Source: a virus (taxonomy: Duplodnaviria > Caudoviricetes). Taken from it: a stretch of 64,000 nt of DNA. Both the position numbers and the translations under genes were made by a program. The DNA is taken from IMG/VR virus record IMGVR_UViG_3300013121_000027, positions 167,460 through 231,459 of that record. One strand, given 5' to 3'. Below the pieces are notes generated by a model, which saw nothing but the letters and a program-made list of their open reading frames with translations, did no database searches and had not been told where the DNA came from. This document shows, in pieces, positions 1 through 62,816 of this stretch (position 1 is the stretch's first letter; each line of letters begins with the position of its first letter).

Positions 1-3000
1 TTACAAATCTACCTTTTCTTGTTCCCCTAAAAAATGTTCGTATTTCGTCAAAACTTTCTATTCCGCGTAATTGAGCTATAGTTTTTGGTCGTTCAATCAA
101 TTCTCTTCGTGCTTCAGCAAGCATATCAATCATCGATCCGCCACCATCTAATCCCATATCTTCTAAGACGTTAAGGCTTATCTTGTTTTCTGCTGCTAAT
201 TTATCTATAGCTAAAATTTGTCTCTTTAATTTATGTGTTGGTATTAAGACGGTTTTATTCTTTTTGACAACCTTCTTAAAAAGCCCCATATCGTATAACT
301 TACGAACTGCTGCAGTATGAAGTTCATCTATACCACCGGCTAAAAATTCTTCTGCACTGTCAAACTGCTCCATACCATGAATGTTCCACCGTTTCGATAA
401 TTCTGCCTCAAATGATTTCATATCAGAAATAAATTTGGAAGCATTTACTTCCTCTTCAGTGGTAAATACTAACCCACTCAATGACTTAACACGCTCTTCA
501 AAAGCGGTTTCAATAACCGGTTTACCCATATCTGTAATATGCTCACCCAAAATAGCTTTACCTTTATAGAAGCCAGACATAGTACTTTCCTTGGTGACTT
601 CCGTAATAGATTTAATTTTCCTTTTGGCGCCAATTTGTTCATTATACGCTTGAATAAATCTTTGTTGAAACGGTTTTGACATTCTTGCCTGTGCCATAGC
701 GCTATCAAAGCCAATATTAAGTTGTTCTGCGCCTACTGGTAAACTCCTATTATATCTTTCGATTAAGGCTTGAGCTTTAGCAAATGCAGCGCCAAACTTT
801 CTTGGATTGTTGTGTAATATTTCCCTTTCCAAATCGTCAATAAGAAAAATATTACCTGTTTTTTTAATTTCGTCTACTGTGACTTCATACTCTACGAATT
901 GTTGTTTAGAGCTTTTTGCTATCTTAATAATTTGCGCTCTTAATTCTGGTGGAAGATTGCTATTATTTAATATATCATCCCAAGCATTGTCTAAAGCAAA
1001 CCTGGCATCAGTTAATTGTCCAAGAAGTCCATTAGCTCTGGCTTCTATTCCAAGTCTATCCTCTATAAGTTTATCTAATGTTTTGCCTCTGGTTAGTCGA
1101 TCTAATTCTGCTCTTTGTTCTCTGGATAAACTTGTAGCTTTAAATCTTGTATATAGGGCATCGTGCCACTCATCAGTTCCGGCAGAAATCTCAAAAGGAA
1201 AAGCTCCAGCATTGGCTCCAAGAGTCCTTTCCAGTTTTCTTTCTGAAACAATAGCGTTAGCAGCGGCGTTAGCTCGCTCCGTTGGAGTACCCCCACCAAA
1301 AGAACGACTTGTGTGGTACGAATGAGAAGCCGATGGCGTAGTATATCTATTCATAGATTCAACAGTTGTCCTCATACCTTTAGGACTTGTGTTTAGAGGC
1401 ATGGCGGGACTTCCATCAGCCAGAGGGGCAGCTGGAGAGAAAGTAGACGCTAAATCAATTTTAGCTATTCTCTTATTTCTCATCATTAAAAGGTGCAACT
1501 TGCTTCGGGTACTATCCAATTCAAAGGTTGCTGTTCTAATCTTTTGAGTCAATCTTTTATAAGTTTTTTCGTAATCTGGAAGCCTTGTATCTAATGCTTC
1601 TCGCTGTAAAAAAAGATTTTCTATTTCAGATGAAAGCTTTCGCTCTTCAACTGATAACTGTCTAACTTGATTATAATTTCCTCTTAAAATATCTTTTTTA
1701 CCAGATTTTGATATTTCAATATCGGGTTGATCAAAAATTCTTCTAAATGCTGAACTTTGATCTTCCGAAGTTAAATCAACATTATAATAACCAAACTCAC
1801 CCTTTTCGGTTGGATCTCTTATACCGAGAGCAAAAATGCGACGAGTTTTTTCATCATACTGCATGTGCCAAACGATACGATCGTCAAGGTCATGTCCACC
1901 GTGAAGCATACTGTGCGTTAAGAAAGATCCAGGATGTATGTGAGCAACGCCCTTCTCAAATCGAACCGTCCCAGGATCTACAAGATCTTTATTCGCCTCA
2001 GGAAAAACCGTTAAGTGAGTACCTACCGATCCCCTTATTGGGAAGTTCAGATTATAATTTGGAATTGACCTGCCACCTAATATTATTTGCTCATCATTTT
2101 TTACGGTTAAGAAATGATCTTGTACCGCATCTAATAATTGAGATGTTATTCGAGGGCTTTGATTTATATCTAAACCAGAATCCAAAGTTGTCTTTATCCT
2201 TTGGGCAAATGCTCTGGAACGCATTTTTTTTGCTATGACGGTTTCGTTATCCTCTGGTAAAATTTCCATTTCAGATAATTCATTAATGAGATTCCTTATT
2301 CCTGGAGTAATTTTTCCATTTTTGATATCGCTTATTAACTCATTGATAACGATTTTGGATTCGTTAACAAAGGAAAAATTATCCCCAAAAAGTCTACTGT
2401 GTGCGGATAAACTTAAAATGTTAGTTCTACCCTGTTTTGGTACTCCGTGACTTTCAAAAGATAAGAAGTAAGTTCCGCGTAATTCGCGTTTTTTATCTGC
2501 GCTGGAAACAAAAGCGTGTGTATTTGCAAATCTTTCCTTTGATAATCTAAAAATCTTCCTAAAAACTTCCTCATTCTCCTCCATAATAACACCGGCATCG
2601 CCTTTATAGTTAAAATCTTCGGACACCATTCGGATATTAACTCTTCCGGTAGAAAACATTGATTTTCTTTGTTTTGTAATTTCTTCTCTTATTGTTTTCG
2701 CTGTGGCAAGATGCTTTGCTCGTTCAGTCAATGGAAGTCTGGAGGCTTGTGCCTCTATCGAATTTGCTTCTTGTTCTAAATTAGAAAACATTTGTTCTAC
2801 AGTTCTTCTATTTAAAAGAACTTCACCATCGTACATTTTTTCAAATGCTGTCTTCCTACTTATTTTTTTTGTACCAGGTGCTGTACTCGCGATAAAAGAA
2901 TCAACCAATCTACCCGCGTCAGGGTTAAAAGCTTCAGCTACTCTTTTTGGATTAAAATGGTGCACGCTAATAGGCGTATCTGCCATAGAAAAAACCCGAT

Positions 3001-3595: not shown

Positions 3596-6500
3596 TTAAA
3601 AACTCCCAGCATTCAACTGCAATATATTGCCAGAAAATGGAGTAGGTGACACAGAAACAGAACCACTTATACCATTATCAAATAAGAATCTTTTTATTTG
3701 AGCCCTTGTACTAAATCCGCCGCTTCTCTTATTGTAGTCTGGGTAAGCGGGATTTAATAAATTAGCTTCTTGTACTTGTTGCGGATAATAACCCATTTGC
3801 GCAAGATCCAATCCTAAACTCTGAGCCATTTTTATCTTTAGAGTATCAGTGCTTATTCCACTTGTCCATATATCAGAATCAGGTGGCGGAAGTTCGTGTT
3901 CGTTAAAATACTCTCTAAGATCTGGCTTTTCTTCTACTGGCATACCCCAAGCCGCCTCAAGCATTCTTCTTTCTAATCTTGGTGCAGTTGAAAGGATCTG
4001 CTGCTTTTCTTCTTCAGGGGCATACAGCATGGCTCTAAAATGTTCTCTTTTTCTCTTTGGAACAGCCATAGCTAATTTCTCTGGAGTAACTTTATCAAAA
4101 TCCATTCCATACATAGTAGTATTAGCCTGATTCTGGAAAAGTTGTGCAGATTGCAAATCGCCAAGTCTTTGAGCTTGAGAGGCTAATCTTGATGATCTTA
4201 CATACTCAAATATATCTGCATATTCTTCAATGCTTGCTTGTTGTTTTCTATACATTGGAATATATCTATCGCCAGTAATACCTTCGTAGGCATTGCCGAG
4301 AGCTGAGGAAGCCAATCCCATAGTACCACCAATAACGCTACCAATAGCGGCTGAACGAGAGCTTGCACCGAACAAAGCACCGAGAACACCGCCAGCTGAG
4401 GCGGCGGCGAGCGGATTTCTTTGTGATGCTTTGTGCATTGCTGGTTTAATGAAGCTTTGGATTGGATTTTCCCAAGATGGGAAAGTCGCACCGTAAACAT
4501 TATTCCTTTCCCAATCTTCCACTGCTGTTCTTGGCGTACCAAGTTTAGTGTTAAGATAGGTATCTCTGTGAGTTAGCCATTCCCAAGTCCTACCTATAGT
4601 AAAAGATGCTGGGTGTTTAAGCATTTGATCTGGAGAACTATACTTATATTCATATGGCGTAAACTCATTTTTAGTTCTCATAGCTTCAACTTGAGCTCTT
4701 GTTAATGAGACTTGAGCGCTTTCTGCAGTGGAAAGATTACCTCTTTTAATCAAAGTATCTATATATTTATATTCTTGCGACCAAGGAGCAATATCTCCTA
4801 GGATGTCATGAACATTTACTAATCCCAATTTGCCTGTTGCGTCAGGAAACATTTGATGAGTTCGAGCATAACCAATACCAGGCAATCTCATTTCCGCATC
4901 AGGAACGGCATTATATGGATCACCGCTCTTAATGTTAGCTAATGGGTAATCTACACCGGGTAGCCATGGGTATCTCTTTCCCATTGCGTTAGGTATATTA
5001 TTGATATAGTTCATACCTGCAGGTTCTTTTGGTACGAATCTACGAATGATTTCTGAGATTTCAAAGTTAGAATACTTACCCTCGATTGGTAGAGGTAGAT
5101 CTCCCAAGCCTCCAATCTGCATATTCCAAAAACTTCTATTAGATGAATACCCTCGTGATGCTGGTTCAAGAACAGATTTTTGCGGAGTTAAATCCTTATT
5201 TCCAATACCGAATCCTTCCCTAACAGATGCGGCAGCGAAACCATAAATACCAAAGAGTTCTTGAGATTGGAATCCAAGACGTCTTGCCGACATATTTATG
5301 GTTCCATAATCGAGGGTGCCACCAGCGGAAACCACTCTTGGGTTCATCTGTCCACGCTTTGTCGGTGTTGCATAAGCTAAATTAGAATACGATGTATTCA
5401 TACCAGAGGCGGTTTGTCTAACCAAAGAGGATGCGGTTCCTCGTGGATTCGCATAACCCATTCCGCCATAAAATGGCGCTATAGAAGATGTCGCGCCGGT
5501 ATATCCTGCATTTATATTAGAGAGTGATCTACCGGCGACATATCCACTATAAGAAGATTGTCCACCACCATAAGATTCCTGTCCTTGTCCTATACCTCCG
5601 CTATATGGGAAATAGGCACCTGATTCTCCAACTGGCTGATATTCACTCAGGATTTGCGACATTTCTCCGCCATGCATTCTACGACGCGGCTTTAATACTC
5701 TTCCTATAGTCGCATTAAGGGCTCCAGTTAATGGTCCCCATGGACCAGTAAAATAATCACCAGTTAATGGATAAGGACGCGAGTTATAATCTTCTCTTTC
5801 TCTTCTATATGGATCTAATGGTTTTAATGGCGAAAAATCATATCCGAAAAGAAGCCTCTCCATAGGAGTTTCTTTCATCTCCGGTGTAAATGATGCGCCA
5901 GATTTTAAACGCTTATACCATGACGGGCGGAAGTATTGTATTCTTCCACCGCGAAATGGCGTATTGCCAAGGATCCAGAATCGCCCTTTTCTGATTGGGA
6001 CTTCGCCATTTACTAATTCATTTCTCTTTTGTTCTGCGGTTTGCCCACCAGGTATTATTCCAGCCCAAGCCGTCTGCCCAGCGGCTACAACATCTCCAGC
6101 CTTACCAAGAAAATAGGGAGAGTAAACTCTATTACCATATTTATCTTTTTCGTTAACTGCACCGCCGATAGTCCTATCGACAGCTAATGCAGTTACGCCA
6201 GCTGCATAGATTGGTAAAACCCTCTTACCAACAAAACCTCTGGCAAAAAGATCTACTGGACTCTTATATCTTGTTTCGTCAACTCCTAATCCAAAGTTTT
6301 CAAAATATCTATTAAGACGACCAATCAAGTGGGTCATCGGAACTTGTGATCCCGACATCGCTTGTGGATCTCTCCAACTTAATCCAGCCGCACCCTTAAG
6401 AGCTCTAAGGGGATTTCTGTCAAAAGCCGTTCTAAACGTCGGCATAAAAACAGTCGAGGTGCCAGTTGGGTTATTTCTAAACGGCTTTTCATACGGTACT

Positions 6501-9500
6501 TGCTGCGATAGATTGCTAAACCCTCTTCTAATAAACCCTTTTGGATGAGCTACACGACCAGAACCTACATCCGCAAGGGCTTCTTGTACGTGTGCGCCAC
6601 GCCCAAGGACTTCTTCTAAGATTGCCTTATTGTGTTCTACTGGCATCATGCCAGGTTTAAAAGTTATATTTCGAGCATGTTCAAATTCAAAACTTAAAAC
6701 AGCCGCGCGTGCTTCAATTCTCTCAGCGTGTGTAATAGCGCCTTTCATATACATTGTTTCGAATTCGGTCAACAAATCCTGAATGGTAGTATCAAAACCC
6801 TGTCCCATTCCAGGAAGAGTTTTTCTCATAATGATATAATCAAAAAGTCCAGATTTTAACTCGTCTACTCTTCTATTCAACCCTGGGGATTTACTTCCTT
6901 GTGGAATTGCTAAATCCCAAACGTTTTCTTGTTTTTCTTCTTGTCTTAGAATATTTCTAACGTGCTGCTGAAGTCTACTAACTTCACGACGACTAATATT
7001 ACCTTGAGCTGGAAGAGTCCCAAGGTCTTCGTCTAAAACTCGTCTGGCTACACGTGACAATATATTTCCATCAATATCAAGAATATTTGTTTTTGTCCCA
7101 CCTATATTTATTTCAAACAAATCTTTAAATTTTGAGGATTGACTTAATCCCCTAAGGGCTTTCATTGGTGGGATTTTGCTTCTTAATGAAGAAAAAAGTG
7201 TATTGAGTCCTTCAGAAAGCTCTGGCGTTATACTACTTGGGTCAAATCCCGGATGATTTATCCATCCAGCAGCCGCTCGTGGATTTTTAAGAGCACCTTC
7301 TTCACCCCTAATTCTACGCTTCCATCTTCCTAAAAGGCTTTCTCTTCCAAAAAATACATTATTCTCTTGATCGGTGCTAACATCAAAGGATCTCTTCAAT
7401 CCAGTTTGATATTGAGATGATGGAACGTCCTTCTGTCCAAGAATATTACCTAATGAACGTCCCAACATCGTATCTGTATTGGTTGTAAATGGTCTAAATA
7501 ATCCACGATATTGTTGAACTCTAACTTCTCCACTGATGTTAGAGAATATTCCAGCAACACGACCCTTTGATGCTCTTGCTGAAGATTTCAAATATAAATA
7601 AAAATTAGGATCTACAAATTCTGCGCCAGCCGCTTTCGCCTCAAGCTTTCCAATCATAGCTATTGGCTGAGTTGATCTACCTGGCGCAACAATAACAGAT
7701 GGACTATGCCTCATAGCCCTGAATGATTGATATCCACCAGCTTGAAATGGCTTTAGTTTAATAAGGGGAAGTTGAAATTCTTCTTGGAATTTATCAAATC
7801 CAGAAAGAAGATTACGACCAACTCGACCAAAGTCTAAAATTCTTCCAGATTTACTTACAACCACCTTGTTAATTCTGAGGTCAGATCTACCCATGGCAGC
7901 TGCATCCGATGGCGATTGTCCTGGCGCTCTCCTGCTAATAAAGTCTGATATCTGATCTTGTACTGCCTTTTTATTGCCACCAAAATAACCGCCAACCAAA
8001 GCCTCTTCAACGCTAAATGGTCTAAATCCAAATATATTCGCACCACGTGTTGTCCATGGGGCGGCTATTTCTTTTTTATCTATTAAGAAGCCACGTAGTT
8101 TTTTAAGATTATTTGGATCAAATCCCTTACCTAATAGATGTCCCTCTAAGATAGAAGTTGGTACTAAGTTGCCGGAAGAGTCGACTGTTGAAATTCCAAG
8201 TCTTTGTGCTGAACGTCTTATTAAGAAGTTTCTACGAGCTCCAAGTTGAGAATCGTCAAAGAGTTCATGAGCTTTTTTGATTGGCGATAAAGCTTTTACC
8301 GCTTCGGGAGCTATTAAAGAATCGTGAGCGACATTCCAAGCTCCAGTTATTTCGGCATGAAGACCTCTTTGGACCTGTCTACTGGCAAATATATTATCTG
8401 CCCTACTAACGCCCTCTTTAAAGGAATCGAATCCAGTCTTACCAGATTTTAAAGAAATTCCATGTGCACCTGCAGACTCGACTACATGATCCCACCAAGC
8501 AGTAAGTTTTTCTTCTTCAGTTTTAAAAGCAAGATTACCTTGCCATTCTTTAGAGGTAAATTTAAATCTCCCAATAAAATCACTTCCTTCACCAGCCGTG
8601 CGTGAAAGAGGTAATGGAGAAATATTTTGTGACTCTTTTACAAATTTTAGAGCAGCTTCCTTAGATAAACCAGATGTCTTTTCTAACTCTTCTATTAAGA
8701 CATCTTTGTAATAGTCTGTTTGTCTGCCAGTATAAAATGCGCTTTTGGTCCAATCTGGATTCTTTGATCCATTGGGTAGTAATGGACCACCACCACCCAA
8801 CGTAACGGTATCTCTTGCATATTTTTCAAGGTGCGTTCCGCTACCTTTATCCATAAAGTTTAAAAGGTCTAAGTACTTTTTGGGATGATCCTTAGCTATC
8901 TGCTGTAGTGTTGTAGCTCCATGTAATACATCTTGATATAGGTCATAAGTTTTTCCTATATCTGTAAAAGATTTTCTTCCTTTTGAGATTGCTGAACCCA
9001 TTCCTTTAAACGGTCCAGGAAGTAGGTCAATAGCTTGATTCCTATTACTTTTATTTGAAATAATATCTTTTGCCTGTAAGAAAAGCCTTCTTGCATATCC
9101 AGAATTAGCATATTGTGGAGTGTTCGTTAGAACGGCATTCGCTCTTCTTTTTGCGAATGATTTTAAGGTCAAATTATTCTCAGCGGCATCATCTATCATA
9201 GATGAAAAGGCGCCAAGAGATTGATGAGAAAACCTAATGGTTTTATTCATCATTTCGCCAAAGTCAACGCCCATTTGTCCAAGAATAGTTCTTGTTGCTA
9301 TAAAGTTTAAATTCTTTTGAGTTCCAGGGCGGGACATAGCTTGCATCGCGTAATTACGATAACTATTTTGAATAGTCCCAGCACCAAGTTCAAATGGTAA
9401 AACGTTAAACGTTAGAGTCTTGAGTGTTTGATATGAAAAATCGCCCAAAACATCAAATGGATTAGCCCAATTAACTTTATTTCTTGGATTTTCATTTTGT

Positions 9501-10072
9501 CCGAGTAACGGATCAAGAACAGCTTTCTGAGATACGTAAAGTGCTGGAGCCTCATATGGTAATCTTCTGGCTTGCGATACGAGTTTCCTTTGAAGAGTGT
9601 CTTTATATGTCCAAGACTGTCCTTGACTTGTAGCTATATTATAGCTATCTATAATATTAGTTTCGTCACGCTTTATAGACGTCACGATTCCATTTTGGTC
9701 TAAGATTTTTCTGCCTATAATAAGTTCATCATTAGGATCTGCTAACGTCCTGTTAACGCCCTCTAACGAATCAAGAATATCCTGAATTTTTCTATAGGAC
9801 GTAAGAGCTTTTTTGCTACTGTCCGCAAGTTCACCGGTACCATGCGCCATTTCCTGAAGACGCATACCAAGTCTGAAGCCACCCTCCTTAACTACCTTAC
9901 CTGCTGTCGCCATAGCGACGATAGAAGCCCCCGCAACGGCAAAAAAGCGCATCACGGGATGACCGTTCAGCGCTTTCTCTATAAGATTAGAATTACCATT
10001 ACCCGGTTCCTCAACTTGCTGTTGAGGCATTCCAAACCCGAGGTTATACCGGGGACCTTTATCGCGGATCAT
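3596..10072 (-). CDS. Giant virion protein, tape-measure-like (2158 aa)
   Basis: Very long Gly/Ala/basic ORF directly downstream of the tube genes and two chaperone-like genes, with hydrophobic Gly-rich segments. Confidence 0.6.
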   Translation of the reverse strand: MIRDKGPRYNLGFGMPQQQVEEPGNGNSNLIEKALNGHPVMRFFAVAGASIVAMATAGKVVKEGGFRLGMRLQEMAHGTGELADSSKKALTSYRKIQDILDSLEGVNRTLADPNDELIIGRKILDQNGIVTSIKRDETNIIDSYNIATSQGQSWTYKDTLQRKLVSQARRLPYEAPALYVSQKAVLDPLLGQNENPRNKVNWANPFDVLGDFSYQTLKTLTFNVLPFELGAGTIQNSYRNYAMQAMSRPGTQKNLNFIATRTILGQMGVDFGEMMNKTIRFSHQSLGAFSSMIDDAAENNLTLKSFAKRRANAVLTNTPQYANSGYARRLFLQAKDIISNKSNRNQAIDLLPGPFKGMGSAISKGRKSFTDIGKTYDLYQDVLHGATTLQQIAKDHPKKYLDLLNFMDKGSGTHLEKYARDTVTLGGGGPLLPNGSKNPDWTKSAFYTGRQTDYYKDVLIEELEKTSGLSKEAALKFVKESQNISPLPLSRTAGEGSDFIGRFKFTSKEWQGNLAFKTEEEKLTAWWDHVVESAGAHGISLKSGKTGFDSFKEGVSRADNIFASRQVQRGLHAEITGAWNVAHDSLIAPEAVKALSPIKKAHELFDDSQLGARRNFLIRRSAQRLGISTVDSSGNLVPTSILEGHLLGKGFDPNNLKKLRGFLIDKKEIAAPWTTRGANIFGFRPFSVEEALVGGYFGGNKKAVQDQISDFISRRAPGQSPSDAAAMGRSDLRINKVVVSKSGRILDFGRVGRNLLSGFDKFQEEFQLPLIKLKPFQAGGYQSFRAMRHSPSVIVAPGRSTQPIAMIGKLEAKAAGAEFVDPNFYLYLKSSARASKGRVAGIFSNISGEVRVQQYRGLFRPFTTNTDTMLGRSLGNILGQKDVPSSQYQTGLKRSFDVSTDQENNVFFGRESLLGRWKRRIRGEEGALKNPRAAAGWINHPGFDPSSITPELSEGLNTLFSSLRSKIPPMKALRGLSQSSKFKDLFEINIGGTKTNILDIDGNILSRVARRVLDEDLGTLPAQGNISRREVSRLQQHVRNILRQEEKQENVWDLAIPQGSKSPGLNRRVDELKSGLFDYIIMRKTLPGMGQGFDTTIQDLLTEFETMYMKGAITHAERIEARAAVLSFEFEHARNITFKPGMMPVEHNKAILEEVLGRGAHVQEALADVGSGRVAHPKGFIRRGFSNLSQQVPYEKPFRNNPTGTSTVFMPTFRTAFDRNPLRALKGAAGLSWRDPQAMSGSQVPMTHLIGRLNRYFENFGLGVDETRYKSPVDLFARGFVGKRVLPIYAAGVTALAVDRTIGGAVNEKDKYGNRVYSPYFLGKAGDVVAAGQTAWAGIIPGGQTAEQKRNELVNGEVPIRKGRFWILGNTPFRGGRIQYFRPSWYKRLKSGASFTPEMKETPMERLLFGYDFSPLKPLDPYRREREDYNSRPYPLTGDYFTGPWGPLTGALNATIGRVLKPRRRMHGGEMSQILSEYQPVGESGAYFPYSGGIGQGQESYGGGQSSYSGYVAGRSLSNINAGYTGATSSIAPFYGGMGYANPRGTASSLVRQTASGMNTSYSNLAYATPTKRGQMNPRVVSAGGTLDYGTINMSARRLGFQSQELFGIYGFAAASVREGFGIGNKDLTPQKSVLEPASRGYSSNRSFWNMQIGGLGDLPLPIEGKYSNFEISEIIRRFVPKEPAGMNYINNIPNAMGKRYPWLPGVDYPLANIKSGDPYNAVPDAEMRLPGIGYARTHQMFPDATGKLGLVNVHDILGDIAPWSQEYKYIDTLIKRGNLSTAESAQVSLTRAQVEAMRTKNEFTPYEYKYSSPDQMLKHPASFTIGRTWEWLTHRDTYLNTKLGTPRTAVEDWERNNVYGATFPSWENPIQSFIKPAMHKASQRNPLAAASAGGVLGALFGASSRSAAIGSVIGGTMGLASSALGNAYEGITGDRYIPMYRKQQASIEEYADIFEYVRSSRLASQAQRLGDLQSAQLFQNQANTTMYGMDFDKVTPEKLAMAVPKRKREHFRAMLYAPEEEKQQILSTAPRLERRMLEAAWGMPVEEKPDLREYFNEHELPPPDSDIWTSGISTDTLKIKMAQSLGLDLAQMGYYPQQVQEANLLNPAYPDYNKRSGGFSTRAQIKRFLFDNGISGSVSVSPTPFSGNILQLNAGSF

Positions 10073-16112: not shown

Positions 16113-16161
16113 TTGGAAACCTCCATAAACAATATGTAGTAGTGCGGCGTTGACCTATGGA

Positions 16162-16168
16162 TATAGTA
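16162..16168 (-). promoter_or_regulatory. TACTATA late-promoter-like motif (sheath operon)
   Basis: The same heptamer occurs 30-70 nt upstream of several morphogenesis genes. Confidence 0.55.
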
Positions 16169-16230
16169 CGAGAAAAACGCCTATATACAACATTTAAAAG
16201 GTGTTTCTATATAATCAAAATTGATTTTTA

Positions 16231-19375: not shown

Positions 19376-19382
19376 TATAGTA
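19376..19382 (-). promoter_or_regulatory. TACTATA late-promoter-like motif
   Basis: 32 nt upstream of the ATG at 19344. Confidence 0.55.
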
Positions 19383-24762: not shown

Positions 24763-24769
24763 TATAGTA
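24763..24769 (-). promoter_or_regulatory. TACTATA motif with an adjacent AGAGATAT-AGTT-ATATCTCT inverted repeat
   Basis: 68 nt upstream of 24695; the inverted repeat is at 24733-24752. Confidence 0.5.
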
Positions 24770-26396: not shown

Positions 26397-26403
26397 TATA
26401 GTA
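26397..26403 (-). promoter_or_regulatory. TACTATA late-promoter-like motif
   Basis: 33 nt upstream of 26364, just after the capsid terminator. Confidence 0.55.
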
Positions 26404-30018: not shown

Positions 30019-30025
30019 TATAGTA
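30019..30025 (-). promoter_or_regulatory. TACTATA late-promoter-like motif (head operon)
   Basis: 30 nt upstream of the protease ATG. Confidence 0.55.
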
Positions 30026-35301: not shown

Positions 35302-35312
35302 TTAAATCACCA

Positions 35313-50407: not shown

Positions 50408-50617
50408 TTAAAGACCGGTTCTTTGCCCGTGACGGTGAGAAGCGATTGTGCTTGAAACTACTATTGCACCGCCACCACCCAATACTCTTCTTCTACCTTT
50501 GGCTATTGCTCTTGGGTTTATAATGCCAAGTCTTCCACGCCCACCACCCATTTTACCAAAAAACTCAAGAGCGCTATCATTTTTTAACGCTCTGCTTATA
50601 GTCTTCATACCAAACAT
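50408..50617 (-). CDS. Small basic Gly/Arg-rich protein
   Basis: GAGGT RBS; TACTATA motif at 50662-50668. Confidence 0.5.
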   Translation of the reverse strand: MFGMKTISRALKNDSALEFFGKMGGGRGRLGIINPRAIAKGRRRVLGGGGAIVVSSTIASHRHGQRTGL

Positions 50618-51996: not shown

Positions 51997-52283
51997 GGAT
52001 CCCGCTTTCAAAAAAACTTTATTCTTGTATTCATAGTACTTATGCTTTAGCGTTTAGGCATAGCACAAAAACCCCTCCCCTGCGACACCACCTTCGCAGG
52101 ACCAAACTTGGGGACAAGATATACGGAATTACACATTAAACACAATTGCTAATTAAGCCGTTTCCGGCGTTCCTTTCCGTAAAGGCTTCACTCAAGCAAC
52201 TTCATGCTTGTTAAGTTTCTCTACGAAGCTGGAATCGTACCGCTCCAGCACGGTTTTTGCAAAACGTATTATAACAGAAGGTA

Positions 52284-53808: not shown

Positions 53809-53819
53809 TAGTAGTTATT

Positions 53820-55709: not shown

Positions 55710-55748
55710 AAGGACCATCTTAGAGTAAAATCTAAGGTGGTCTTTTTT
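55710..55748 (+). terminator. Intrinsic terminator
   Basis: AAGGACCATCTTAGA-GTAAAA-TCTAAGGTGGTCTT followed by a T run. Confidence 0.85.
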
Positions 55749-55987
55749 ATTATTATCGTATAACATGTTGAAAAAAATATTAGAAAAAATTTTGAAAAAC
55801 CGGAAAGATATAACCCCTAAATAACCCAGAATTTTCTATAAAATTTATGGGGGGAACAGGTTGAGTATCGTCATCAAGACGAAATCTTAACTTGCCCACC
55901 GGAGTATGGGGCTATCAATAATACATACACGCAGTACAGTACGTAGTACTCTATACGTACACATACATTACCCTAAAGGAGGGTATC

Positions 55988-56683
55988 ATGTTTAAGGCAT
56001 TCATCATTGCACTGATGGCATCACTCACCATCAACGTACACACGGCTACCGCTACTGAGCAGTATGACCTGTGTGATCTGACCGTGGTGTTGGGGGATTC
56101 ACTGATCTCCCGCTCACCCATCGTGTATGCGGAGGCATTCGCCAACTTGGGGATTGATGCATTGATCCTCAGTGGTGCAGGTCGGGCGATTGATTTCCCT
56201 GATGTGCAGAACGACAACACCATCACCTGGGTGAAGGATGGACACATTGGTACATTGGTGTCCTACAATACTCACATGAGCGGTATCGAGTCGGTTGAGT
56301 TCGCTCGCCGTGCATACCCGAACAAGGATTTGTGCTGGGTTGTTGCACTTGGTACCAATGATGCAGCACACCTGCCCGAGTCGTGGTGGGATGCAGATAT
56401 CGACAAGATGACCACTGCATTGGGTGGCGATCTGGCGTTGTGGATCCCCATCTACATGGACAGCAAGGAGTGGGACGGTTACACTCCTGAGGTAGCAGAA
56501 GCATGGCATACTCGTTTCTACTACAACCATGACATCATGGCGATCTCATTGTGGGATGAATTCGCCAGCGCCAACGCAGAAGCTGTCCTGTCTGATGATG
56601 GTGTGCACTTGACCGAGTATGGTTCGTGGGCGCGTGCGCTGTACATCGCCAGCGGTACCACCGGTTGGTACAACATCGACTGA
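55988..56683 (+). CDS. Secreted SGNH/GDSL hydrolase-family protein
   Basis: Signal peptide; blocks LGDSL, G, LGTND and DGVHL. Confidence 0.85.
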   Translation: MFKAFIIALMASLTINVHTATATEQYDLCDLTVVLGDSLISRSPIVYAEAFANLGIDALILSGAGRAIDFPDVQNDNTITWVKDGHIGTLVSYNTHMSGIESVEFARRAYPNKDLCWVVALGTNDAAHLPESWWDADIDKMTTALGGDLALWIPIYMDSKEWDGYTPEVAEAWHTRFYYNHDIMAISLWDEFASANAEAVLSDDGVHLTEYGSWARALYIASGTTGWYNID

Positions 56684-56772
56684 TATATGTACCCACTGCG
56701 TACAAGATGTAACCCGGCTTGTACGTAGTGATGTATGTGTATTGGACACATGCAAAAATAGGAGGAAAAGCA

Positions 56773-57024
56773 ATGACACAGCACACGTATGCTGTAGTGT
56801 TGGTTACCCTGCTCATAGTGGGTGGTGGTGTAGGCACGTTGGTGTGCACGTACATCATCATGCGCCCCATCATGGCTGCACGTAGGGCGGCGCGGTTGGA
56901 GGCATGGGAGCGTCAGGCTCGCCTCATCCGTATCGTGCAGGCGTACCAGGATGACCTGCAGTACAGGAAGGCACGTTGCAAAGAATTGGCTGAACAAGTT
57001 GCTCGTATGGAGCGTGTGAAGTAG
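56773..57024 (+). CDS. Small membrane protein
   Basis: GGAGG RBS; N-terminal TM helix followed by a coiled coil. Confidence 0.65.
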   Translation: MTQHTYAVVLVTLLIVGGGVGTLVCTYIIMRPIMAARRAARLEAWERQARLIRIVQAYQDDLQYRKARCKELAEQVARMERVK

Positions 57025-57030
57025 TAATAC

Positions 57031-57085
57031 TACCCTTACCCTACAATGGTGTAGGTACATACAGGTTCGATTCCTGGTAAGGGTA
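57031..57085 (+). ncRNA. tRNA-like element lacking an anticodon arm (copy 1)
   Basis: TACCCTTAC/GTAAGGGTA stem, CCTAC-AATGGT-GTAGG arm, CAGG-TTCGATT-CCTG T-arm. Confidence 0.6.
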
Positions 57086-57135
57086 CTGCAGTTTGTATGT
57101 TCTGCCGGAAAAACATATAAAGGAGAGTAAGTGTC

Positions 57136-57303
57136 ATGTTGTTCTTCATTGCAACTTGTGACACCTGCGGAATGGACGTGTATGTTCGCGTCCTCGATGC
57201 TGACAAGGAGCATGCTCTGAGCCACGGTACCGTTCTGTGCGAGAACGAGTTGAAGTGGCGCTGGTACACCGTACCCGCCGACGTCAAGTACGTCCGGAAG
57301 TAA
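57136..57303 (+). CDS. Small CxxC protein (55 aa)
   Basis: AAGGAG RBS; hand-translated MLFFIATCDTCG... Confidence 0.65.
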   Translation: MLFFIATCDTCGMDVYVRVLDADKEHALSHGTVLCENELKWRWYTVPADVKYVRK

Positions 57304-57312
57304 TAAGAGGTA

Positions 57313-57361
57313 GCCCTTCCCCAGTGGTGGGTAGACACATGGTTCGACTCCATGGTGGGGC
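57313..57361 (+). ncRNA. tRNA-like element lacking an anticodon arm (copy 2)
   Basis: GCCCTTC/GTGGGGC stem, CCC-AGTGGT-GGG arm, CATGG-TTCGACT-CCATG T-arm. Confidence 0.6.
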
Positions 57362-57404
57362 ACAGCGTCTTGCGTATACGCACAAATACGCTAAAGGAGA
57401 GATC

Positions 57405-57563
57405 ATGGCTTACACCTTCACTCCTACTGATCCCGAGCCCGTGTACGAAGAAGAGAAGAGCTTCGTCGTGCAGGTTTGCCGTGGCTCGGGCAAGTCGGGT
57501 CGAGTGGACTTCACTATGCGTGAGGTCTTGAAGTCGATGAAGAACGCTCCTACCAGCAAGTGA
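57405..57563 (+). CDS. Small hypothetical protein (52 aa)
   Basis: AAGGAG RBS; MAYTFTP... Confidence 0.65.
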   Translation: MAYTFTPTDPEPVYEEEKSFVVQVCRGSGKSGRVDFTMREVLKSMKNAPTSK

Positions 57564-57689
57564 TCTGGTAAGAGTAGGTTTTGCGGGATTTCCTGAAACT
57601 GAATAATCCCGTCCCCTTCATTATATTCATTTATGGTGGAGGGACTGCGTTTAACGTCTACGCTCAAAGACGTAAAAGGAGAAAAGGAA

Positions 57690-57947
57690 ATGTTGCGTTT
57701 CCAGCACCCGTACGGCGGCATCTGCACCGTCATCGGTGAATTCACCCCGCAGGAAATCATGGACTGGCTGATCAAGAGCCAGATCCCGGCGATGTACCTC
57801 TGCGCCCTGCAGGACGGCATGCGCTACAACCTGACCGACCCGTTCGGGATGAAGATCCTCGACATCATCGAGAAGGACCGCGAGATCCTGGTCTACAGCC
57901 AGGGCAAGGGCAACCCCATGGTGCGCTTGGAGGTGATCAACAAGTAG
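57690..57947 (+). CDS. Small hypothetical protein (85 aa)
   Basis: AAGGAG RBS; GC3-rich codons. Confidence 0.7.
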   Translation: MLRFQHPYGGICTVIGEFTPQEIMDWLIKSQIPAMYLCALQDGMRYNLTDPFGMKILDIIEKDREILVYSQGKGNPMVRLEVINK

Positions 57948-57953
57948 AGAGGG

Positions 57954-58010
57954 AAAAACTGAGAGTGAGGGGATTGGCGAAATTCGTCAGTCCCTTCCTC
58001 TGAGCTTTTT
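57954..58010 (+). repeat. Intergenic long-hairpin repeat, copy 1
   Basis: GAGAGTGAGGGGAT...TCCCTTCCTCTGAGCTT is shared with 58409-58466. Confidence 0.75.
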
Positions 58011-58110
58011 GCTCATGACGTGTCCATAGCGTCATAAAATAAGTATGGAAAGACCCTGCTCACAGCGCGGCAGTAACTTAGTGCTGTACTGTTCTAATGG
58101 AGGAACAGTC

Positions 58111-58413
58111 ATGTCGAAGAACCAGAACACCAACGGTCAGCAGAAGTCCTCCAAGGGCGGCTGCAAGAAGCACATGTCGGGCAACCGTAAGAGCGACGTC
58201 GCCAAGGCGGGCAAGCGCTCCCGCAACCGTGGCGAGAACCAGGGCAAGAACCACGTCACCACGACGGAGTTCCTGGTCCGTCAGGGCATGGGCAAGACCG
58301 TCAACATGATGCCGGTGGTCCAGCAGCACACGATCCCGCAGGAGCTCATCAAGGTCATGCACATCGAGACCGAGATCGCCCGCAAGGTCAACGCGTCCTG
58401 GCTGAACAGCTGA
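58111..58413 (+). CDS. Basic hypothetical protein (100 aa)
   Basis: GGAGG RBS; Lys/Arg-rich N-half. Confidence 0.7.
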   Translation: MSKNQNTNGQQKSSKGGCKKHMSGNRKSDVAKAGKRSRNRGENQGKNHVTTTEFLVRQGMGKTVNMMPVVQQHTIPQELIKVMHIETEIARKVNASWLNS

Positions 58414-58466
58414 TCAGTTGAGAGTGAGGGGATGGTGCGATCATCCCTTCCTCTGAGCTTATCAGC
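58409..58466 (+). repeat. Intergenic long-hairpin repeat, copy 2
   Basis: Same flanks as copy 1, with a different but fully paired apical stem. Confidence 0.75.
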
Positions 58467-58497
58467 CCGATAGCTCAACATGATTCAAAGGAGGATC

Positions 58498-58632
58498 ATG
58501 GACAGGAATGGAAAGACAACTGTTGCCGAATTGGCAGCAATGATGAAGATGACGCGTGAGGTGCAGCTGTTGCAGATCGCAAGGATCAGGCAGTTCATCG
58601 AGACCATCAACCAGAGAGGAGCAAGGTCATGA
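58498..58632 (+). CDS. Small protein (44 aa), possible HTH fragment
   Basis: AAGGAGG RBS; TVAELAAMMKMTRE; ATGA coupling to the next gene. Confidence 0.55.
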   Translation: MDRNGKTTVAELAAMMKMTREVQLLQIARIRQFIETINQRGARS

Positions 58633-59234
58633 GGTGCTCAGCTATGATCAAAAAGCCTGGTGATGAGTTCTATCACCAGTGTCCGAAGAGTGCGACGAGG
58701 TTTGGGTTTTGCGGAACCCACCTCATGAACTGGGAGCCCCCAGTGAAGACACCGCGTAACGTGCCCAGCTACACGGTCTGTCGTCCACCACGTAGACTCA
58801 CGTTCCGACTGATTCCCGAGTCGAAGATCGTGCGTCACAGTTGGTGGTTGCGTCAAGAGATCGTCACGGCGGCGGCGCGCTGTGTCGAAATGAAGCGCAA
58901 CCATGGCATCGACTGGCACAACTACGAGGTGGCGACTCGTAAGCGTGAGGCAGAATTGCAGAGGTTGAGGGAGGCAAACACCATCCACTGCAAGGAATGT
59001 GGTGAACTCCTCACCGAAGGCGCTTCTGCCATGCGTGATCGGTACATCACGCCGCGTCAGCACTACTTCATCGTGCGACTGGTGAATTCTCGCCAGTTAG
59101 ATGTTGATCGCAAGATGTTGATCATGGAGCGTCTGGCTACCCACGATCGTCTGTGGGCACTCAAGGCGATCCATCAGCTGCTGAAGCACACACCAGTCAT
59201 CGATACCTTCGAGTTGGAGGCTGAGCCCTTCTGA
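58629..59234 (+). CDS. Hypothetical protein with Cys/His Zn-binding motifs
   Basis: C...C...FCGTH and HCKECG. Confidence 0.65.
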   Translation: MRCSAMIKKPGDEFYHQCPKSATRFGFCGTHLMNWEPPVKTPRNVPSYTVCRPPRRLTFRLIPESKIVRHSWWLRQEIVTAAARCVEMKRNHGIDWHNYEVATRKREAELQRLREANTIHCKECGELLTEGASAMRDRYITPRQHYFIVRLVNSRQLDVDRKMLIMERLATHDRLWALKAIHQLLKHTPVIDTFELEAEPF

Positions 59235-59329
59235 CATGAAGGCACTGAGAGTGGATAGTGCGATTATCCACTCAATTGTGTTTTTGTGCAATCCCGCATG
59301 AGACACACATCCATAAGGAGGGATGTAAA

Positions 59330-60001
59330 ATGAAGTGTGGTATCAAAGTCAACAACCGTCAGTGCAAGAACAACGTCGTAAGCGGTCTGACCATCGGAGT
59401 CCTCGATTCCGTGGTGTACTGCTGCAGCAGCCACTACAAGAAGTACGCCAATGTGGACGCCATCAACGTCCCGGTGTACACCAGCACCAAGAAGGTCACC
59501 CCCAAGGAGGAGATCATGAACAAGGAAGATATGCCGTTCCACGGACACTGCGACTGTGGTGGCTGCACGACTGTAGCCGAAGCGGAAGCCTGCCACGCTG
59601 AAATGGTTGCGAGAGTCGAAGAAGAAATCAACACCACCACCAAGAAGGAGGAGACCATGAAGACCGACATCGGCATCTTCACCATCAACTACCACGAGAA
59701 GGGGACGGTCAAGTGCATCAAGTGCAGCAAGGAACTGCCCATCAGTGATCCCGAGGGCAACTGGGAGCGTGGTGCGTTCCACTCCATCGAGGATCTGCGC
59801 AAGTGCCTCGGTGCTGCTCCTGCACCCGCCAACCCCCACAACGCGCTCATCAACGAGTGGGAAGCCAAGGACGGGACCAAGATGGTGAGTGAGTGGTACG
59901 CCAACGCCCACCTCGCCAACAAGCGCTGCCTGGAACTCCGCAAGGGCTATGTCAAGCCTGCGAAGAAGGGCAACGGTCACTGGGTGCACTACGCCAAGTG
60001 A
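59330..60001 (+). CDS. Modular Zn-finger protein (223 aa)
   Basis: AAGGAGG RBS; three Cys/His clusters. Confidence 0.7.
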   Translation: MKCGIKVNNRQCKNNVVSGLTIGVLDSVVYCCSSHYKKYANVDAINVPVYTSTKKVTPKEEIMNKEDMPFHGHCDCGGCTTVAEAEACHAEMVARVEEEINTTTKKEETMKTDIGIFTINYHEKGTVKCIKCSKELPISDPEGNWERGAFHSIEDLRKCLGAAPAPANPHNALINEWEAKDGTKMVSEWYANAHLANKRCLELRKGYVKPAKKGNGHWVHYAK

Positions 60002-60125
60002 TTCAGCCGTGCTGAGCATCACGCAAAAAGGCTTCGGGTGTTGCGTAAGTGGGAATTCGCAGCCCACCACCCGCTATATTCACATAATCCCGTGTGGATA
60101 TAAGACAAGATTCATAGGAGGAATC

Positions 60126-62816
60126 ATGTCAACGCAAGTACAACTCCGTAATGGTCGGTGGCTTGAAGCTACCGCACTGCCTGGAGATTTGTTTGAGGCA
60201 ATTCTCGCTTCAGGCAAGAGCAAGATCTATCCCATGAGCGAGCTTCGTGCTGTGCTCACGGATGGACAGGAAGAGGTCATCCCCAACAAGAAGGAGGAGA
60301 AGATGACCAACTACATCAACCACTACCTGCACAGGTTGGCGTTCACGGATGATGATGGTGAGCAGTTCGCTGCCATCGTCCGTGCTCTGACCAGCAATGT
60401 GCCTGATGCCACCAAGGCTGACTACCTGGCGTCAGTCGAGAGCAAGACTGTGGTGAACAACGTCCTCGCCCTCAATTCGGGCAACTGGATGTTCCACCTG
60501 CTCAAGGCTCGTCTGGAGCAGTGCCACGTGAACTTCAAGACCTGGGTGATCAAGCTCAGGACTCAGGATGACGTGTATGGCTTGGACAACATGTCCGCTG
60601 CCAAGCGTCAGGAACTCATCGATGGTTCTACGTTCTGCTACGCCAACGCGGATTACGCCTTCTTCTTCAAGGTGGAAGGTGTTCCCGAGTTCGGTCTGCA
60701 CCTGATGGGACTGAACATCACCCATGCCAAGAAGAGTGCCAAGCGCCTGCAGGAGCTGTTCCGTCAGGTGGAGGCATTTCTGCATCTGGAGGGTGAGGAT
60801 CAGAAGAGTCTGACGTGGGATTTCAATCCGCGTCTGGACCTGGCTGGTGATGAGGTCAAGCGCTATGACGGCAAGACTTACATCCGTCAGTCCTTCGCCC
60901 TGCGCATGGCTGAGAACATCAGCGATCTCATCCGCCGGGCGAGCGTCATCAGGGCGATCCGGTCGCGCAAGTTGGTTCACATCACCATCCGCATCCTGAC
61001 TCCTCAAGGTCTGCTCAAGGGCGATGCTGTCATCGTTCCTGACAACCAGATCAGTGCGGACATCTCCACTGTGAGCGAAAATGTCAAGGGTGAGCTGTTC
61101 ACCAATGACTTCACTTTCGCCTGCATGTGGGAGCATGCCATGGTGCACAACGCGGTGTGGGACGACCAGAGTGCGATCAACTTTGGTTATGCCCTCTCCG
61201 AGCAGGCTCAGATCAGCGACATCATCCGTCTGGTGGAGAATCTTCGCAATGCCATCCAGACAGGTGAGCTCCCTGAGTGGCTGCTCCTCGGTGAAGATGG
61301 ACACGGTGATGATGGGCTGCCCAGCGTTGAGAAGCTGAGCGACACCATCAACAAGAGCTGGGTCCGCTTCCAGGCGTTCGGGTTGGACATCAAGGCAGCA
61401 CAGAATCTGCTGTACATGGCGCTCAACGGCGTCATCCTGCGCATGATCCGCGCTGGTATGACAAAGGAAGGGTTCTACCGCAAGATGTGGATCCCCATGA
61501 CCAATGCGTGTTTGCTCACGATCAACACATGGGAATCGGCTACCCGCGTTGGAGGGTTCAACTTCCATGGTCGCAACAAGAACATCGCGTTCTACGATCC
61601 TCGTTGCGGCTTCGTGATCAGCAGCCAGCGCTTCATCGAGACCTACCATCTCCATGGTGGTTGGGATCTGGATGACAGTGTGAAGGTCATCTTGGTGAAG
61701 GTGTTCTGCAGTGATGCGGAAATCCTGACCCAGCATGTCCACAAGACTGTCCCTGGTGAGATCGAGTACCCCACCAGTGCCGACGATGCCAAGTTGATGG
61801 TGCTGTTGGTCCGTTCTCCCAACGGTCCGGGCGAATGGAGCATCGAGGAGTGCGATATCACCTCCCTGCCCATCCCGCAGGACTTCCGTCATGACGACAT
61901 CACGGTTATCGACATCGCCAAGATGCCGTTGCCTCAGGATGTCATGCTGGCGCAGGTTGGTCCGATCGCAGGATTCACCTCCAACATGAAGTACACTGGT
62001 CTTGAAATGACCAGGGCTGAAGGTGAACTCATGGTCAATGCTCAGATGTCCAACCCCGGTGTTGGTGAGTACTGCAACGGGATGATGTGGTGGGCATTGA
62101 TCAAGCCTGGTTCCTTCCCGCCCATCATGAATGCCAAGATGGAGGAAGTGGTGGACACCAGTCAGCAGGAGCATGATGCAGTGAAGTTCGCTGCCATCAA
62201 GGCTGAGACTGATCTCATCATCAAGCAGGCTCTTGCCACCAATCTGCCCGTCGATGCAGCGTTTGCATCCACCAGGATGTCCTTCACGAACATGATGAAG
62301 GTCCGACTGGTCAAGGGTCGTTTCTACCGTGTCCAGCACGAGTACAAGAAGGCGATCGAGACCATGCGGACTGAACTCCGTGACCACACGCTGCAGATGC
62401 GTGCTGCGGATCCGACGGTCCAGGCTGTCAAGCACATGCGGTTCGGTGACGAGTTGTTCCAGTGGGCTGAGCACTTCTATGTGTCCAACTCGCAGGCAAT
62501 GACCAGCACCGATCGTGCGTACGAAGTCAGCCCCAAGGACCATCCGTTCCACAAGATGGAGATGGCTCGCCTGCACAAGGAAGCAATGGAAGAGATCGTG
62601 GCTTCCATGGTCAAGGAACTGGATGATTTCGGTGACGAAACCAACAACCATGTCCTGGCGCTGTGGAAGTACATCAACCACTCCACCCGTCGCTTCCCCA
62701 TGGGTGTCTCGGATCGCATCGTCTTCCACCCCAACAAGACGGGTGAGCGGTCGGTCATGGACGTCCTCATCGAGGCGCTGCTGGCTGTCAACCTGGCGGT
62801 CAAGCCCAGTAAGTGA
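60126..62816 (+). CDS. Single-chain RNA polymerase-like protein (RdRP/YonO-type), candidate non-virion RNAP (896 aa)
   Basis: AGGAGG RBS at ATG 60126. Motifs in order: AKRLQELF, RYDGKTYI, TIRILTPQGLLKGDA, LHGGWDLDD (61650-61676), VRSPNGPGE, GVGEYCN, EEVVD. Confidence 0.8.
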   Translation: MSTQVQLRNGRWLEATALPGDLFEAILASGKSKIYPMSELRAVLTDGQEEVIPNKKEEKMTNYINHYLHRLAFTDDDGEQFAAIVRALTSNVPDATKADYLASVESKTVVNNVLALNSGNWMFHLLKARLEQCHVNFKTWVIKLRTQDDVYGLDNMSAAKRQELIDGSTFCYANADYAFFFKVEGVPEFGLHLMGLNITHAKKSAKRLQELFRQVEAFLHLEGEDQKSLTWDFNPRLDLAGDEVKRYDGKTYIRQSFALRMAENISDLIRRASVIRAIRSRKLVHITIRILTPQGLLKGDAVIVPDNQISADISTVSENVKGELFTNDFTFACMWEHAMVHNAVWDDQSAINFGYALSEQAQISDIIRLVENLRNAIQTGELPEWLLLGEDGHGDDGLPSVEKLSDTINKSWVRFQAFGLDIKAAQNLLYMALNGVILRMIRAGMTKEGFYRKMWIPMTNACLLTINTWESATRVGGFNFHGRNKNIAFYDPRCGFVISSQRFIETYHLHGGWDLDDSVKVILVKVFCSDAEILTQHVHKTVPGEIEYPTSADDAKLMVLLVRSPNGPGEWSIEECDITSLPIPQDFRHDDITVIDIAKMPLPQDVMLAQVGPIAGFTSNMKYTGLEMTRAEGELMVNAQMSNPGVGEYCNGMMWWALIKPGSFPPIMNAKMEEVVDTSQQEHDAVKFAAIKAETDLIIKQALATNLPVDAAFASTRMSFTNMMKVRLVKGRFYRVQHEYKKAIETMRTELRDHTLQMRAADPTVQAVKHMRFGDELFQWAEHFYVSNSQAMTSTDRAYEVSPKDHPFHKMEMARLHKEAMEEIVASMVKELDDFGDETNNHVLALWKYINHSTRRFPMGVSDRIVFHPNKTGERSVMDVLIEALLAVNLAVKPSK

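Follow-up and report, generated by a model that had tools for sequence, protein, structure and literature searches.

The final 64 kb of a phage record of 231,459 bp in IMG/VR (IMGVR_UViG_3300013121_000027, genome positions 167,460-231,459; this whole stretch of 64,000 nucleotides is called the window below) contain two genes, copies A and B, which together with a third gene of the same genome, P0019, probably encode three anciently diverged, single-chain, two-barrel DNA-dependent RNA polymerases (RNAPs) which most likely run phage transcription without the host enzyme. We infer with good confidence that the copies are active as DNA-dependent RNAPs. An earlier note on this DNA had proposed two such paralogues, one at each end of the window. 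Both open reading frames (ORFs) were found where it had placed them, with that of A running past the window start.

Window 1-3595, minus strand: copy A, the first 1198 codons of the 1470-amino acid gene P0003 (genome 166642-171054), the long predicted two-barrel paralogue, in the tail module.
Window 60126-62816, plus strand: copy B, 896 amino acids (residues 80-975 of P0002), with ATG at 60126 behind AGGAGG, the short paralogue, in a GC-rich block.
Genome 33951-36572, plus strand, outside the window: P0019, 873 amino acids, with HGGPDLDD and LVRSPNDLGEYS.

All 11 motif pairs that the note had quoted as shared by A and B occur once per protein and in identical order. The very different base composition which it had also described was evident as well: A has 37.4% GC and 25.5% GC at third codon positions (GC3), B has 55.7% GC and a GC3 of 74%, and the GC3 of P0019 is 39%. 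Pairwise comparison of A and B by BLASTP gave an E-value of 0.031, confined to the region HGGxDLDD...RxP..GE, and a search with a hidden Markov model (HMM) of the B family did not retrieve A (E-value 34). As the pairwise score was marginal, significance of the homology required family profiles. Alignment of the A family (28 sequences) with the B family (16 sequences) by hhalign gave a probability of 97.6% and an E-value of 2.6e-12 over 655 columns, placing residues 181-1150 of A on residues 193-884 of B with KRL, DG, R..KGD, K.EL, GLDI, GGxDLDD, RxP...GE and LG...N in register. A direct link between A and B was provided by an exhaustive phmmer search with A against 1.8 billion sequences, which matched the 860-amino acid protein P0055 (E-value 3.8e-5), a protein of the B type (E-value 7.6e-16 against alignment A1, which represents B and its 15 metagenomic homologues of 26-55% identity). 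A word-index homologue search detected no relatives of A; exhaustive searching with A yielded 40 proteins at E-values of 0.001 or lower, including A itself, mostly 1370-1590 residues long (alignments A2 and A3). We regard A and B as almost certainly homologous proteins of a two-barrel fold.

The profiles thus support the claim that A and B are paralogues, although distant ones, but the count of two did not hold, since a search of all ORFs of the genome with the B-family HMM detected P0019 as a third copy (E-value 2.4e-16). The alignment of P0019 with the A family is stronger still (probability 98.8%, E-value 4.6e-17, 450 columns). Its C-terminus has a CxxC...CxxC cluster, zinc-ribbon-like in appearance, which is absent from A and B. 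We also searched five related IMG/VR records of 169-216 kb with a profile of the catalytic barrels (alignment A4). Three copies were found in four of these records and two in the fifth, which is 84% complete. The related genomes have one long copy, on the strand opposite to the short ones, and two copies of ~860-920 residues located ~12 kb apart on the same strand (just one such copy in the 84%-complete record). The three-gene set is therefore a conserved trait of a jumbo-phage clade. The open frame of one relative's B orthologue continues upstream across a NADAR domain (L012:5398-8616, plus strand; Pfam E-value 1.2e-22), which may represent a fusion or an upstream gene that is merely in the same frame.

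Structures of both proteins were modelled with AlphaFold2 using the family alignments. The B model had a predicted local distance difference test score (pLDDT) of 81.9 and a predicted template modelling score (pTM) of 0.76; the A model (residues 1-1200) had a pLDDT of 84.3 and a pTM of 0.83. When the B model was compared with the PDB by Foldseek, ranks 1-19 were all QDE-1 or RDR2 (best E-value 3.2e-7, probability 1.0, template modelling score (TM) 0.43), and P74-26 gp62, P23-45 gp64 and then P23-45 gp96 (rank 28, E-value 0.27) followed at lower ranks. VIA-align gave the same leading proteins (RDR2, Z 11.9 over 581 residues; QDE-1, Z 9.6 over 612 residues), with gp64 at Z 8.3 and gp96 at Z 6.4, and after these polymerase matches it aligned isolated domains of the double-psi beta-barrel (DPBB) type with B residues 216-336. 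For the A model, the top 17 Foldseek matches (best E-value 6e-5) were exclusively two-barrel single-chain polymerases, including crAss phi14:2 gp66, and VIA-align found RDR2 (Z 9.8 over 578 residues), QDE-1 (Z 7.3-7.9 over ~620 residues, with 618 for the match at Z 7.9 and at most 625), gp62 and gp64 (Z 6.8) and gp66 (Z 5.3); gp96 was not among the matches listed for A. Unrelated matches of the A model had Z of 5 or lower and aligned lengths of ~100 residues, and A residues 204-383 were matched by DPBB proteins. PolD was absent from the fold matches of both models. In these predicted structures, A and B have the overall fold of single-chain two-barrel RNAPs (two DPBBs and a bridge-helix region) of the QDE-1/RDR2 type, and the top matches of both models all belong to the single-chain two-barrel group. 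The best BFVD matches of A were two uncharacterised proteins of uncultured Caudovirales (E-value 2e-18) followed by fragments of crAss-like proteins, and the B model retrieved a single unnamed cluster from the ESM Atlas (TM 0.44/0.58), which was uninformative. B residues 1-54 (window 60126-60287) were modelled as a small SH3/KOW/Tudor-like barrel, with Z of ~4-4.7 to Spt5 KOW and SH3 domains.

Putative catalytic and other conserved elements of A and B are located as follows.

Window 2822-2833, minus strand: YDGE of A (D256-G257), putative first-barrel acidic residue, nearly invariant.
Window 2594-2605, minus strand: KGDA of A (K331), preceded by NIR322; first-barrel R...KG element, K331 invariant, inside the DPBB-matching region 204-383.
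Window 1880-1906, minus strand: LHGGHDLDD of A (residues 564-572); D569, D571 and D572, putative second-barrel loop for metal binding, unchanged across 36 A-family sequences.
Window 1796-1819, minus strand: RDPTEKGE of A (residues 593-600), family-specific R-x-P-x3-G-E after the Asp loop; R593, P595 and E600 invariant.
Window 61017-61028, plus strand: KGDA of B (K298-G299), preceded by the invariant R289; first barrel, inside the DPBB-matching region 216-336.
Window 61650-61676, plus strand: LHGGWDLDD of B (residues 509-517); D514, D516 and D517 invariant in the B family.
Window 61812-61835, plus strand: RSPNGPGE of B (residues 563-570), R563-G569 invariant; aligns with RDPTEKGE of A.

Across the 36 members of the A family, which share 16-33% identity, R192, K331, G566, D569, D571, D572, R593, P595, E600 and D908 are invariant, and R322, the counterpart of R289 in B, is conserved. 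The B family keeps the matching residues K206/R207, R289, K298/G299, K321, D514, D516, D517, R563-G569 and D677. When 39 sequences representing all three branches were aligned together, D-x-D-D, R-x-P and G-E proved invariant or almost so, with full invariance limited to D-x-D-D and R-x-P. Because the putative catalytic residues of A are invariant at such low identity, we read A as probably having kept an enzymatic function.

In QDE-1, the metals are bound by D1007, D1009 and D1011, and the first-barrel residues D709, R738, K743 and K767 take part in the binding of cation B, product and nucleoside triphosphate (NTP); R738 and K743 contact the RNA product and D709 helps hold cation B (PMC9508822). 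The first-barrel order D-G, R...K-G, K-x-E-L in the phage proteins fits these roles, and K298 and K321 of B are 23 residues apart versus 24 for the QDE-1 pair. K331 of A and R289, K298 and K321 of B are invariant and lie within the DPBB-matching regions; order and spacing suggest their equivalence to the QDE-1 residues. The second-barrel loop, which the note had described as a different catalytic signature, is indeed the non-canonical D-x-D-D in this phage. Its middle residue varies (L, F, A, W, K, N or E among the 39 sequences), as a D-x-D pattern predicts. The most distant B-type proteins, including the B orthologues of five sister genomes, have W-D-Q-D-G-D at the Asp-loop column; in the same genomes the P0019 orthologues read HGGHDEDD and the A orthologues GGFDLDD. 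As the B orthologues hold D-Q-D-G-D at this column, D-x-D-D looks like the canonical triad minus its Gly.

Most genes of the phage are arranged in two arms, one on the plus strand from ~221 kb through the junction to ~99 kb and the other on the minus strand at 103-220.8 kb, which holds the structural genes. The minus strand of the window encodes the large terminase, the portal, the major capsid protein, a head-protease-like gene, a tail fibre and two tail-sheath paralogues. The two sheath genes and the structural set indicate a contractile-tailed jumbo phage, in agreement with the tail type that had been proposed.

Window 14880-16112 and 16935-18119 (span 14880-18119), minus strand: two tail-sheath paralogues (phrog_16991, E-values 1.4e-36 and 3.8e-16).
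Window 3596-10072, minus strand: P0059, a giant gene of 2158 amino acids directly upstream of A, in a tape-measure-like position and of no family.

Along the minus strand, the two sheath genes are followed by a LAGLIDADG endonuclease gene between two fragments of one structural family, several small genes, P0059 and A; past A there are a 138-amino acid gene, a 2767-amino acid protein, a spike-like gene, gp25-like and gp6-like wedge genes and a 1507-amino acid virion protein. The long copy thus lies in a tail and baseplate module, as had been claimed, with sheath genes upstream and spike and wedge genes downstream. The 2767-amino acid protein (genome 157911-166214, minus strand) has an endolysin-like region (phrog_20474, E-value 7e-125) and an endonuclease-like C-terminal part.

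No match to any Pfam, PHROG or ESM Atlas feature, tape-measure families included, was found for P0059, which contains 10% Gly, a weak Gly-zipper at residues 1891-1923 and a hydrophobic Gly/Ala/Ser segment near the C-terminus; its designation as the tape measure is a positional guess. Its TAA stop is immediately followed by the ATG of A, with GGGAG 7 nucleotides ahead of this ATG, so that A is a separate ORF and not part of a tape-measure fusion. This seamless junction suggests translational coupling. A close relative and a distant genome also have the giant gene followed by A, and the two genes of relatives either overlap by a single nucleotide or stand 14 nucleotides apart, out of frame. Fusion of P0059 to A by read-through with a phage suppressor tRNA was considered and rejected, because the stop is TAA and relatives have the two genes in different frames. 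An additional helical insert of ~230 residues (~620-850) and a C-terminal extension of ~270 residues with a conserved hydrophobic, Gly-rich segment set A apart from the short copies. The insert, the extension and the tail-module synteny support, short of proof, a tail-associated and probably ejected polymerase. Codon usage of A is of the late type. From its gene context, we somewhat favor the view that A is carried in the virion, as are the packaged phage polymerases N4 gp50, crAss gp66, P23-45 gp96 and the phiKZ virion RNAP.

Copy B is found in a different setting, on the plus arm.

Window 55710-55745, plus strand: strong terminator-like hairpin (15-bp stem and T run) which ends the UvsX/deformylase unit just ahead of the GC-rich block.
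Window 55850-64000, plus strand, running on past the circular junction to about genome 4000 (~12 kb in total): GC-rich block, 52-56% GC, which holds B and small genes without a known family.

The genes of this block have GC3 of 0.63-0.88, compared with about 0.25-0.4 elsewhere; pre-early genes may be adapted to the tRNA pool of the host and later genes to that of the phage. A 78-kb relative, whose B homologue is 33% identical, has the same order of ClpB-like, UvsX, deformylase and B genes and the same GC-rich island, and more distant B orthologues are GC-enriched relative to the A orthologues of their own genomes. The conserved island and the GC enrichment indicate that the block is old, neither a recent import nor an assembly chimera. 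An antisense ORF of 861 amino acids (window 60432-63017, minus strand) lies opposite B, most likely as an artefact that arises from this gene's high GC3, because B has homologues and a confident fold. In the 78-kb relative (L003:6950-9230, plus strand), the spacers ahead of genes upstream of the B homologue hold sequences similar to a tRNA T-arm (GGTTCGACTCC and the like), each with a conserved hairpin behind it; such sequences might serve as tRNA-like elements for punctuation or processing.

Indirect support for a staged programme comes from a conserved motif which begins only after B. The most over-represented 12-mer of the genome is AAAAAGAGGGGA. Its 10-nucleotide core, AAAAGAGGGG, has 10 plus-strand copies (genome 728-28067) and one minus-strand copy, where 0.12 per strand is expected, and a one-mismatch variant located 74 nucleotides ahead of the P0019 start takes the range of the motif to genome 33878 (plus strand). 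The motif thus extends from downstream of B to P0019, with zero copies ahead of or inside B. In the 78-kb relative, eight copies lie directly after the B homologue (L003:12854-17415, plus strand; 0.02 expected), most of them ~40-50 nucleotides before the Shine-Dalgarno sequence and start codon of a small gene, and a complete 210-kb relative has AAAAATAGGGG three times, all within 2 kb after B. Copies of AAAAAGAGGGGA stand upstream of small genes, and a short hairpin often follows. Judged from this distribution, the motif behaves like a candidate phage-specific promoter class that would be active once B is made. A second motif was found on the minus arm.

Window 16162-16168 (ahead of a sheath gene), 19376-19382, 24763-24769, 26397-26403 and 30019-30025, minus strand: five copies of TACTATA.

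TACTATA occurs in 7 of 25 upstream regions of the minus arm (0.29 expected; first of 140 permutations of the same letters), where it precedes sheath, protease-like and other genes, and might tentatively be taken as a weak late-promoter motif. The distribution of AAAAAGAGGGGA and the presence of TACTATA fit a three-stage programme as a whole, and they do not assign a particular enzyme to a particular signal. Other candidates were discarded: TTTTGCGGGATTTCC and ATAATCCCGT, considered as pre-early promoters, have just two good copies apiece, and the frequent AT-rich k-mers AAAAAGAATAA and AAGATAAATAT are located mainly within genes. Sigma70-like sites at 52-64 kb were not more common than in shuffled sequence.

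These observations could be combined as follows. A would be made late together with the tail, would probably be packaged into the virion and ejected along with the DNA, and would then start transcription with the GC-rich block, including B. B would transcribe the AAAAAGAGGGGA units, including P0019, which lies 34 kb further on the same arm behind the last copy of the motif, and P0019 would transcribe the late structural arm. The promoter classes would accordingly begin with a pre-early signal in the GC-rich block, followed by AAAAAGAGGGGA and lastly by a TACTATA-like late signal. In each enzyme, the first barrel (D-G, R...K-G, K-x-E-L) might hold the 3' end of the RNA and the phosphates of the NTP, the invariant G-G-x-D-x-D-D loop of the second barrel might bind Mg2+, and the helical region after the barrels would contribute an invariant Asp in a (V/I)-D motif. 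The order A, then B, then P0019 is the likeliest one but tentative. We are still more hesitant about the wider proposal that an aquatic or environmental clade of jumbo myophages has fully host-independent three-stage transcription, with a tail-delivered copy, a promoter class for each enzyme and D-x-D-D derived from D-x-D-G-D.

Several observations weigh against reading the three proteins as RNAPs that replace the host enzyme. There is no sequence-level tie to any characterised polymerase. Scans of A, B, P0019 and nine orthologues with Pfam and PHROGs detected no polymerase family, even at E-values up to 5 for the Pfam RdRP, Rpb1, Rpb2 and T7-type models; phmmer and profile hmmsearch against PDB sequences (A, B and alignments A1, A2 and A4) gave nothing significant, the best match, archaeal Rpo1C (E-value 0.09), being regarded as noise; and a tblastn search of 50,697 phage records found no match. 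All three copies in this phage read DLDD and do not have the D-x-D-x-D triad in the second barrel. In canonical enzymes, an R-x-P-x-x-H element precedes the Asp loop, whereas the invariant R-x-P...G-E of these families comes after it. The global TM of the A model to QDE-1 is 0.18-0.24, which implies a different domain arrangement. Finally, some AAAAAGAGGGGA copies are 8-14 nucleotides from a start codon and are potential ribosome-binding sites, and sigma70-like sites in the divergent region at 52.2-53.6 kb suggest that the host polymerase may read some genes.

Some of these points are shared by alternative explanations. A might serve chiefly in tail structure or ejection (lumen, plug or membrane channel) and descend from a polymerase, with transcription left to B and P0019, or to the host enzyme early on. 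Its position amid giant tail and baseplate genes, the helical insert and hydrophobic Gly-rich extension that the short copies lack, and the global arrangement of its model, unlike that of QDE-1, would all agree with such a role. However, D569, D571, D572, K331, R192 and D908 are invariant across the 36 homologues despite their divergence, and the known virion polymerases P23-45 gp96 and crAss gp66 are both structural and active (PMC10770324); thus, we consider a mainly structural or ejection role of A unlikely. A changed chemistry, in which the two-barrel proteins would be RNA-dependent polymerases, primases or PolD-like DNA polymerases, is suggested by the nearest solved folds, of which RDR2 is RNA-dependent and QDE-1 has both activities, and by the altered D-x-D-D loop. 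It appears very improbable, since every phage protein of this fold that has been characterised is a DNA-dependent RNAP (PMC7824862), PolD was not among the fold matches, and no other RNA polymerase or sigma factor was detected in the genome: in the whole 231 kb there was no match to Rpb1 (PF00623), Rpb2 (PF00562) or RdRP (PF05183) and no sigma70 region-2 domain, and the T7-type RNAP model (PF00940) also had no match, although this model was silent in every control genome as well.

It is also conceivable that B and the GC-rich block are a horizontally acquired island outside any cascade, that the host polymerase transcribes early genes, and that AAAAAGAGGGGA is a signal for translation or RNA processing. 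The contrast in GC3 between B and A, the nearby sigma70-like sites and the motif copies that abut start codons would be explained in this way. Yet the island, its synteny and the motif are all kept in the relative with the 33%-identical B, B-type genes were found on phage contigs only, and the majority of motif copies stand 40-59 nucleotides upstream of a separate Shine-Dalgarno sequence and start codon, so there seems to be only a slight chance that this explanation applies.

Phage two-barrel polymerases are the simplest relatives of cellular RNAPs and of the polymerases of eukaryotic RNA interference, and to our knowledge few of them have been characterised, namely YonO, crAss gp66, and P23-45 gp64 and gp96. 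The scheme in which a packaged polymerase is followed by a non-virion paralogue is already known from P23-45 and, with multisubunit enzymes, from phiKZ and AR9. In P23-45, the packaged two-barrel virion RNAP transcribes the gene of the second, non-virion enzyme (PMC10770324). Like gp96 and gp64 of that phage (PDB 8h2m, 8f72), A and B are paralogous single-chain proteins of the two-barrel type, one in a tail module and one in an early region. There are, however, differences: here the tail copy has an ORF of its own behind a giant gene and is not the N-terminal domain of a tape measure, there are three paralogues instead of two, the phage is of the contractile-tailed jumbo kind, D-x-D-D stands in place of the DFDGD loop, and the predicted folds are nearer to QDE-1 and RDR2 than to gp64 and gp96. 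With Neurospora QDE-1 and plant RDR2 (PDB 2j7n, 7y7s, 7w84), the best fold matches of both models over ~580-620 residues, A and B share the order of elements (DG, R..KG and K in barrel 1, the GG-Asp loop in barrel 2, then the helical region). They differ in having no detectable sequence similarity to them (PF05183 is not matched), in D-x-D-D versus D-x-D-G-D, in the R-x-P...G-E after the loop, and in the phage context, where DNA is the likely template.

Similarly, crAss phi14:2 gp66 (PDB 6vr4), a virion-packaged two-barrel RNAP, is a fold match for A (Foldseek E-value 1.2e-3; the VIA alignment covers 545 residues), but it has ~2200 residues, belongs to a podovirus, has a DFDxD loop and lacks non-virion paralogues. 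SPbeta YonO and the YonO-like enzymes of the jumbo phages 0305phi8-36 and c-st are likewise single-subunit two-barrel phage RNAPs (PMC7824862). YonO is set apart by its description as a single copy outside the tail module with a canonical triad (PMC7824862), and in a control genome it matched the Pfam RdRP model weakly, below the cut-off, whereas A, B and P0019 did not match it at all. Jumbo phages of the phiKZ/AR9 type have the same logic of a packaged polymerase and a later-made paralogue for host-independent transcription (PMC7598289), but their enzymes are split into beta- and beta'-like subunits detectable by Pfam Rpb1 and Rpb2, of which there are none here. No link was found between this clade and the moraphage lineage of sigma-factor-encoding phages (PMC12619734).

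What appears to be new is a family invisible to the profile libraries, the presence of three paralogues across a clade of jumbo myophages, the separate tail-module gene, a D-x-D-D loop with canonical relatives within the family, predicted folds nearest to those of RNA-dependent RNA polymerases from eukaryotes, and a conserved candidate promoter. Because the family escapes Pfam, PHROGs and PDB sequence searches, jumbo phages carrying it would be scored as RNAP-less and host-dependent. If the reading is correct, this would be a third independent case of packaged and later single-chain polymerases, here in a contractile-tailed jumbo phage with three paralogues. The natural change from D-x-D-G-D to D-x-D-D within one family would offer a ready test of the requirements of the metal triad, the short motifs are candidate promoters for small and possibly orthogonal polymerases, and the folds, which resemble QDE-1 and RDR2 more closely than they do other phage enzymes, are relevant to the proposal that eukaryotic RNA-dependent RNA polymerases originated in phages.

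Some additional features of the genome were also observed. The two ends of the record overlap by 141 bp, which indicates a circular map. A ClpB/Hsp104-like AAA+ gene (window 50617-52011, minus strand; phrog_4871, E-value 2e-101) adjoins the divergent promoter region and has the same location in a relative. The LAGLIDADG homing-endonuclease gene between the structural-family fragments (window 13568-14452, minus strand) lies beside the adjoining ORFs 12319-12960 and 13034-13543. The phage has 22 tRNAs, all on the plus arm at 16.5-97 kb and reading mainly A/U-ending codons; ARAGORN identified a tRNA with a CTA anticodon at genome 82082-82155 (plus strand), which would be an amber suppressor.

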